From UHGV virus genome UHGV-2163408: a DNA stretch of 33,817 bases, one strand, 5' to 3'. This DNA is from a virus. The notes below the pieces were generated by a model. The model ran no database searches. It was not told the origin of the DNA and saw only the letters and a program-made list of their open reading frames with translations. The position numbers and the translations under genes are program-made. Shown here one piece after another: positions 2,025 to 2,114 of this stretch (position 1 is its first letter; every line of letters begins with the position of its first letter).

Positions 2025-2114
2025 ATGCAAGCACCTTTGTTGTGATGTATGCTTGCATTATATGCACTGTACACACATACAAGCAAGCATAAAACCAAAA
2101 CAAAATGCTTGCAT
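2025..2114. promoter_or_regulatory. Array of four 10-bp palindromic sites ATGCWWGCAT in divergent promoter region
   Basis: Read directly: ATGCAAGCAC 2025-2034, ATGCTTGCAT 2049-2058, AAGCAAGCAT 2081-2090, ATGCTTGCAT 2105-2114; spacing 24, 32, 24 bp; sites 2 and 4 share the 12-mer ATGCTTGCATTA. Confidence 0.5.

Follow-up and report, generated by a model that had tools for sequence, protein, structure and literature searches.

The operators of lambda and P22 (OR/OL) and those of the P22 Mnt and Arc proteins are closely set sites lying over the -35, the -10 and the transcription start, where a phage protein binds cooperatively and regulates its own synthesis. The array of short repeats described here has the same arrangement, and with the P22 immI operators it also shares a genome region, immI. 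The lambda and P22 operators, however, are dyads of 17-21 bp, whereas this array is made of directional words of 7-10 bp, with a different word and a different protein, which is of neither the helix-turn-helix cI/Cro type nor the ribbon-helix-helix type. That protein carries a P63C domain. P63C was reportedly defined by Iyer, Koonin and Aravind in 2002 as one of the variable C-terminal domains to which DNA-binding modules of the KilA-N, Bro-N and APSES type are fused. We found no functional studies of the P63C family, or of the motif words, in the literature.

A second described system, and the closest in concept, is the abortive-infection protein BstA of prophage BTP1, which has a DNA-binding N-terminal domain and whose DNA element, aba, overlaps the upstream region and first codons of the bstA gene (Owen et al. 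2021, PMC8585504). Both systems consist of single prophage genes at lysogeny-expressed hot spots, with a putative DNA-binding N-terminus and an element at the gene's own 5' end, and in both the element differs between protein variants. They differ in that BstA has no detectable sequence relationship to the P63C protein. Furthermore, aba is a single unit of 63 bp that has CCCGCC direct repeats at its ends, whereas the P63C array comprises four heptamer words placed on promoter elements; aba is variant-specific, whereas the word GCAAGCA is shared across phyla. BstA also has a defence phenotype, which P63C proteins are not known to have. The likeness of the P63C array to aba is one of position.

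In kind, the array appears to be a multi-site operator on the promoter of a phage accessory gene, with a word and a protein family for which we found no description in the literature. The reading that we favor, with moderate confidence and from sequence comparison, is autorepression, in which the P63C protein would act through its N-terminal module on the array in its own promoter.

Genomic context of the array

The window, meaning the whole stretch of 33,817 nucleotides that was analyzed (UHGV virus genome UHGV-2163408), covers, in reverse orientation, the immI end of a P22-like (Lederbergvirus-type) prophage. The chromosome of E. coli G749 contains an identical stretch, and the region is present in 66 of 5426 complete E. 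coli genomes. The domain make-up of the tailspike (Table 1) suggests a K1-capsule-specific P22-like prophage, with a combination that we take to be like that of CUS-3 type prophages. The genes arc and ant are missing in the window, where 135 bp (653-787) with a Mnt-like dyad lie between mnt and the tailspike start; both genes are still present in the close relative vB_EcoP-611R6. Between mnt and the P63C gene is a hairpin that is probably a terminator common to the two and the 3' end of the P63C module; the consensus terminator and promoter scan of the window did not pick it up. Ejection-protein genes follow beyond the 129-aa ORF.

Table 1. Coordinates of the sites, predicted signals and genes in the window
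Feature	Position	Strand and sequence	Remarks
Site 1	2025-2034	plus ATGCAAGCAC; gene orientation GTGCTTGCAT	core 2027-2033; between RBS and ATG of P63C gene
Site 2	2049-2058	plus ATGCTTGCAT; gene orientation ATGCAAGCAT	its two leading bases in gene orientation are the last two of the -10
Site 3	2081-2090	plus AAGCAAGCAT; gene orientation ATGCTTGCTT	holds the -35 hexamer; outer flank degenerate in window
Site 4	2105-2114	plus ATGCTTGCAT; gene orientation ATGCAAGCAT	~60 bp 5' of predicted transcription start
Whole array	2023-2116		94-bp imperfect inverted repeat, two convergent site pairs; repeat finder
Predicted -10 of P63C gene, TATAAT	2057-2062	minus	read from sequence; position conserved in relatives
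Predicted -35, TTGCTT	2081-2086	minus	18 bp 5' of -10; inside site 3; geometry conserved
RBS of P63C gene, AAAGG	2034-2038	minus	directly 5' of site 1
P63C-domain gene, 322 aa	1055-2023	minus (2023..1055)	Pfam P63C 6.8e-14; RefSeq name; candidate binder of the array
N-terminal basic motif	1910-2002	minus GKAKGGIARAKSLTKEQRSEIAKKAAAARW	codons 8-38; proposed DNA-reading element
129-aa ORF	2180-2569	plus	PHROG 2651; homologue of Sf6 gp38 and Emek orf129
Tailspike N-terminus	652..2	minus	P22-type head-binding domain and endosialidase N-terminal extension
Mnt-type repressor	788-1039	plus	Arc/Mnt-type protein; own dyad near 708-724, upstream
Hairpin CCCACC-tgac-GGTGGG	1025-1050		T runs on both strands; weak terminator-like Rfam matches 1027-1069

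An earlier note on this DNA took the array for the control region of a divergent "cargo pair", the P63C gene and the 129-aa ORF. Close relatives separate the two. In phage vB_EcoP-611R6, the P63C gene and intergenic region are 98.3% identical to the window up to position 2182, with a different gene beyond, and the four substitutions within the array all fall in spacers, outside the 12-mers. Phage Emek carries the 129-aa ORF (99.6%) with a near-identical leader, but has unrelated DNA upstream, and the 34 bp at 2149-2182 are identical to the leader and RBS of P22 sieA. It follows from this comparison of 611R6, Emek and the P22 leader that the 129-aa ORF occupies the sieA position as a cassette, in a mosaic module of its own, and that the array is part of the P63C module. 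The sieA-type leader occurs with many unrelated upstream sequences and resembles a fixed junction at which cassettes in the sieA position are exchanged. Whole or in part, it has matches in ~320 further E. coli genomes, frequently where nothing is annotated; a 301-bp query gave a match of any kind in 385 E. coli genomes. The 129-aa protein is unrelated to sieA, and its N-terminus is signal-peptide-like.

The array could nonetheless be a bidirectional operator shared by the P63C gene and the plus-strand 129-aa ORF, and such an element can serve two divergent genes: at 34 of the 73 P63C loci among the listed matches of a bacterial genome scan (see below), the array is symmetric and the ATG of a divergent IS1-like gene abuts site 4. 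In the window, however, the 129-aa ORF starts 64 bp beyond site 4, behind the 34-bp leader, and the plus-strand -10 beside site 3 is degenerate (CATACA). At many other loci, what lies upstream is a gene in the same direction together with a terminator, and the array is also present at loci without any divergent gene. We consider a shared operator very unlikely and treat the array as belonging to the P63C gene.

Four directional sites on a predicted promoter

The four sites that the earlier note had placed in this region, their start-to-start distances of 24, 32 and 24 bp and the 12-mer ATGCTTGCATTA common to sites 2 and 4 (2049-2060 and 2105-2116) all proved exact. The arms of the inverted repeat that they form lie at 2023-2056 and 2083-2116, as located by the repeat finder. 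The enrichment that the note had proposed to check by counting held for the exact motif and failed for the looser one. Exact ATGCWWGCAT occurs three times in the window against 0.47 expected, a number that none of 100 shuffles reached. With one mismatch allowed, there are eight matches in the whole window against 8.25 expected, which is chance level, yet four of the eight are packed into 90 bp. At least four sites in any 100 bp arose in none of 1000 first-order Markov simulations of the window, and the shuffles and simulations together rule out a chance cluster. The window holds no further site pairs, only two lone 8-mers, which is chance level, so that the gene's own promoter is the sole target in the window.

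These sites had been described as 10-bp palindromic dyads; the sites are real, but none is a true palindrome. The center is AA on one strand in every window site, and the sites therefore have a direction, which alternates (-> <- -> <-) in gene orientation. The unit is best described as the 12-mer TAATGCAAGCAT with a near-invariant core, GCAAGCA, or as the directional word aTGCAAGCAy. A logo of 88 aligned sites (22 divergent loci with four sites each) reads a-T-G-C-A-A-G-C-A-y. Of the seven core positions, five never vary, and no more than four of the 88 sites depart from the core at the remaining two; no site has TT in place of the central AA, and three copies of site 4 have AT. From core to core, the distances are 22-24 bp between sites 4 and 3, 30-33 bp (mostly 32) between sites 3 and 2, and 23-24 bp between sites 2 and 1. 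Within a pair, the centers lie 22-24 bp or about 2.2 helical turns apart, an uncommon distance for a single dimer. Words that have a direction and converge in pairs do not readily suggest a stoichiometry of four symmetric dimers, each on a dyad of its own. The multi-site operator suggested for a dimeric protein is supported as a multi-site element that is probably recognized by a protein.

An operator of the lambda cI/Cro or P22 Mnt/Arc type was tried and rejected, in agreement with the earlier note: the word and the length differ, the annotated P22 operators are unrelated in sequence, and Mnt has a dyad of its own.

On the minus strand, the elements follow one another in the order ATGCTTGCTT - 18 nt - TATAAT-GCAAGCAT - acatcacaacAAAGG - TGCTTGCAT - t - ATG. 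The terminal "AT" of a perfect -10 forms the first bases of site 2, and the predicted transcription start, near 2050, falls inside the same site. In most relatives, the -35 hexamer is TTGCAT or TTGCAA; throughout the family, a TAnnAT hexamer ends at site 2; and the placement of the RBS is repeated, with GGAG or AAGG immediately 5' of TGCTTGC. The geometry is found again in relatives whose hosts are AT-rich and in others whose hosts are GC-rich. The sigma-70-type promoter is a prediction read by eye that rests on conservation and not on the consensus promoter scan of the window, which did not flag it because the -35, TTGCTT, matches only three of six bases. The repeats thus overlap the translation start and the predicted core promoter of the adjoining gene.

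Conservation of the array across phages and phyla

Protein-based searches of IMG/VR gave 75 loci and then 80 more, largely overlapping; together with the window, these 156 protein-ascertained loci (protein identity 52-100%) collapse to 54 distinct upstream regions. An alignment-query search of IMG/VR for distant relatives returned mostly the same close relatives. Four exact cores are present in 35 of the 54 regions, and four regions have the proximal pair alone; site 1 adjoins the ATG in the 54 regions, with a single mismatch in its core in nine of them, and the spacers among the regions are randomized. The contexts of the array also differ, from P22-like immI regions to positions beside tRNA genes or after a conserved terminator, GGTCGCAGAGATGCGGCCTTTTTT.

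The 54 regions bear on the question of whether the repeats act as RNA, with hairpins formed by sites 4:3 and 2:1, or by the 94-nt stem, that block the RBS or make an RNase III site and need no dedicated protein. The fold of a read-through transcript (2125..2012), at -52.3 kcal/mol (z -6.8), encloses the RBS and AUG; such transcripts are likely because the P63C gene is co-oriented with the late operon, and this stem also explains weak Rfam matches to models of long hairpins (miRNA precursors), although no Rfam family reached threshold for the array. The gene's own mRNA, however, would lack the 5' arm because the -10 abuts site 2, and when begun at the predicted start it is nearly unstructured (-7.4 kcal/mol, z -1.4). 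Seventeen core deviations occur in the 54 regions, none of them compensated and 15 of them breaking a pair. Pairing of the flanks is no higher than in shuffled controls, except at one of 16 flank positions, which we attribute to relatedness. The sequence, and not just the pairing, is conserved down to ~30% protein identity, and several distant lineages without site 1 keep sites 4, 3 and 2. An RNA element acting without a protein is, in our judgment, highly improbable; conserved site sequence, drifting spacers and the lack of compensatory changes support a multi-site DNA element recognized by a protein. The 94-nt stem may well silence the translation of late-operon read-through, as the modeled fold suggests.

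Searches that started from the motif show how widely the array is spread. A blind scan of IMG/VR for TGCAAGCA-N12-16-TGCTTGCA gave at least 120 loci. Among the 120 matches listed, 67 have a P63C-family gene, which in nearly all cases starts 0-60 nt from the pair and which in some encodes a protein 28-36% identical to any member of our alignment; the remainder mostly look like chance matches within coding DNA. A blind search for three sites, in which one genome represented each bacterial species, also gave at least 120 loci, and 73 of the 120 matches listed have a P63C-family gene starting at the array, in five phyla. Since the loci of both scans were picked by the motif and the counts concern the matches listed, these fractions show breadth and not frequency. 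The hosts include alpha-, beta-, gamma- and delta-Proteobacteria, Acidobacteria, Dehalococcoidia (Chloroflexi), Gemmatimonadota and Actinobacteria, and the layout is kept where the proteins share only ~30% identity. The idea of a locus-specific regulator, put forward in the earlier note, does not agree with the use of the same word across bacterial phyla.

This breadth also bears on whether a host transcription factor, such as a SlyA/MarR-type protein or LexA, binds the sites. The consensus of SlyA, TTAGCAAGCTAA, has a central GCAAGC core in common with the array word, but its flanks differ. Between the -35 and -10, at 2067-2082, there is moreover a LexA-like TTGT-N8-ACAG on the gene strand (CTGTACACACATACAA), with a perfect CTGT-N8-ACAG in locus L061 and similar sequences in L029, L031, L063 and L068. 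Against a host factor, the array is conserved over Actinobacteria, Chloroflexi, Acidobacteria and all classes of Proteobacteria, a range far beyond that of SlyA, and always with the gene; no MarR-type protein is encoded at the locus. LexA-like matches number 19 in the window against 11.6 expected, which is chance, and they are absent in many relatives. Binding by a host factor is thus extremely unlikely, and a protein encoded with the array remains the better candidate.

The LexA (SOS) box at 2067-2082 was also considered as a feature in its own right and rejected: it has CAA in place of CAG, matches with one mismatch are common, and a richer consensus is not matched.

Several features of the flanking DNA vary with the locus. 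The hairpin GGTCGCAGAGATGCGGCCTTTTTT stands 5' of the array in contexts that are otherwise unrelated (L027, L031, L059-L061, L063, L066, L067, L402 and L438), and it may be the 5' boundary of a mobile module. Loci with the proximal site pair alone include the L034 group (seven loci) and L070. The L034 group seems to have site 4 joined to site 2, a state that recombination between like-oriented repeats, with loss of the segment between them, would produce.

The IS1-like gene that is divergent to the P63C-family gene at bacterial loci (L203, L205, L220, L224, L231, L242, L273, L277, L282 and others) is ~300 aa long, resembles an IS1 transposase and matches NCBIfam IS1 at 6e-16, below the cut-off of that model. 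Where this partner is present, the array is two-fold symmetric between the two genes. The P63C-family gene and the IS1-like gene appear to form a conserved two-gene module, and the helix-turn-helix of the IS1-like gene could provide a second binder at those loci. We also considered whether the words are terminal repeats of an insertion sequence and rejected this, since cores outside the array at 30 IS1-like loci are scattered at ~1.6x chance (41 vs ~25), with no consistent far-end position.

The P63C protein and its N-terminal module

The 322-aa protein is a member of Pfam P63C (PF10546), with residues 199-286 scoring 52.7 bits against a gathering cut-off of 26.1, and the domain is matched in all 51 members of our alignment. 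RefSeq names it a P63C domain-containing protein, and its PHROG match, 2384, has no annotated function. The family is large, with 1682 homologues in one search, and it occupies prophage accessory slots that include those of Stx phage 933W and of P22-like Salmonella and E. coli prophages. Nothing beyond P63C was matched in Pfam at E = 1, NCBIfam and sequence-profile searches of the PDB gave no match, nor did Foldseek against the PDB, and no family of the PADLOC defence models, BstA included, was matched at E <= 0.01.

The most conserved part of the family is the N-terminal basic motif, with the consensus GKAKGG-ARA--LT-EQR-EIA-KAA-ARW and with G13, G14, R17, R26, A30, R37 and W38 invariant in the alignment. 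A small beta/alpha domain follows, up to about residue 135. The mean pLDDT is 74.7 for the full-length model and 77.7 for the N-terminal model; the motif itself is modeled as two helices, at low confidence. This predicted fold is compatible with DNA binding and is not evidence for it, the fold matches being too weak.

What connects the N-terminal module with the array is its inheritance. The basic motif is kept in array-carrying relatives of ~30% identity. The proteins of loci L310, L218 and L280 have a C-terminal part unrelated to the family, and that of L310, which was the one compared, aligns with the family over the first ~100 residues only (hhalign probability 95.6%); the array is present in all three. 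A second E. coli allele (L071-L078), with a protein 54% identical overall, has the same array and first ~40 codons as the window gene, which suggests that recombination joined two sequences directly downstream of the N-terminal motif.

A sample not chosen by motif came from a tblastn search of cultured phages (60 records, of which 16 loci were inspected). In it, an array, canonical or related, is present in 10 of 12 lineages with the N-terminal motif and in none of three without (p ~0.02 by our own Fisher estimate). Canonical arrays occur in Burkholderia phage Bups phi1, the SPN9CC/ST104 group of Salmonella phages, Paracoccus phage Pkon1, Pseudomonas phage Lodos and Salmonella phage SEN34. Burkholderia phage DC1 has four copies of TGCyAAGCA, and the Gordonia phages Kuwabara (with a GCAAGTA inverted repeat), Petra and Barco have related or degenerate arrays. 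The three lineages without the motif, in which the array is absent, are Erwinia phage Midgardsormr38, Salmonella phage SI8 and Streptococcus phage Javan515. Burkholderia phage E192a is an exception among the motif lineages, in that we found no array although the motif is present.

In the subgroup of 933W L0095 and BP-4795, both the motif and the word are different. The motif is altered to EQRKESSRKAV-AKK (...EQRKESSRKAVAAKK), and the DNA upstream of 933W L0095 (L407, 582-617) and loci L406, L438 and L440 have three copies of ACGTGCA (-> <- ->) at the same place before the gene. This word is kept at 87% and at 52% protein identity, with different spacers. Locus L439, with a 61% identical protein, has TGCACGT once and a TACGCA/TGCGTA palindrome. 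At L438, the array of the ACGTGCA class is also preceded by the hairpin GGTCGCAGAGATGCGGCCTTTTTT.

The sites are thus co-inherited with the gene regardless of its neighbors, and the word changes with the N-terminal motif, with E192a as the exception. Such covariation of word and protein is what a cognate protein-operator pair predicts, and it makes the adjacent protein, which the earlier note had proposed as a possible regulator, the best candidate binder by comparative evidence: the array travels with the family and changes with the N-terminal module.

Proposed autorepression and possible self-recognition

Under autorepression, the gene product would bind aTGCAAGCAy through its N-terminal module, that is, the basic two-helix motif and the small beta/alpha domain. 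Site 4 would be occupied at about -60, site 3 on the -35, site 2 on the -10 and start point, and site 1 between the RBS and the ATG. An oligomer on both convergent pairs would shut off the protein's own promoter, because the sites cover the -35, the -10 and start point, and the gap between RBS and ATG. The outcome would be a low, self-limited expression in the lysogen. Binding of the protein to the sites, repression rather than activation, and the stoichiometry are what we infer here.

Alternatively, the array may be a self-recognition or decoy element like aba of BstA, one that, on the phage's own genome, marks or titrates a DNA-acting P63C defence or exclusion factor, for example as copy number rises after induction. 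The precedent is BstA, whose cognate element overlaps the start of bstA and the DNA before it (PMC8585504). P63C-family genes likewise lie in lysogeny-expressed hot spots, cI-N in phages of the SPN9CC/ST104 type and immI here, and the gene directly follows the repressor gene in Kuwabara, SI8, Javan515 and Midgardsormr38; different subgroups also have different words. However, the PADLOC search gave no match even to BstA, and the word of the main class is invariant across phyla and so could not set related phages apart as the variant-specific aba elements do. The coincidence of the sites with the -35, the -10 and the RBS region is in turn what an operator requires. By analogy with BstA, we consider an aba-like role possible but unlikely, and it may coexist with the autoregulation that we favor.

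A broader proposal is that P63C-family proteins are widespread DNA-directed defence or exclusion factors of prophages. The fixed array of self words (GCAAGCA, or ACGTGCA in the Stx-phage class), read by the N-terminal module, would then serve both as operator and in an aba-like self-immunity or titration, and the coupling to IS1-like genes in many bacteria would be a new two-gene mobile module. We offer this proposal tentatively and hold it to be doubtful. A 7-bp word and a promoter geometry conserved to this degree across phyla are in any case unusual for a phage accessory gene. They provide handles on the family: the word GCAAGCA, in convergent pairs, as a proposed DNA target; residues 8 to ~135 as a candidate for the module that reads it; and ACGTGCA as a second specificity class.

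The array is also a practical marker for finding P63C-family genes and for correcting their start codons. In SPN9CC (L402, JF900176.1) and ~20 related records, including ST104 ORF23, the annotated start is ~62 codons too far upstream, and the annotated ORF traverses the full four-site array; translation probably begins at the ATG that immediately follows site 1 (MSDKESKEPTGKSKGG...).
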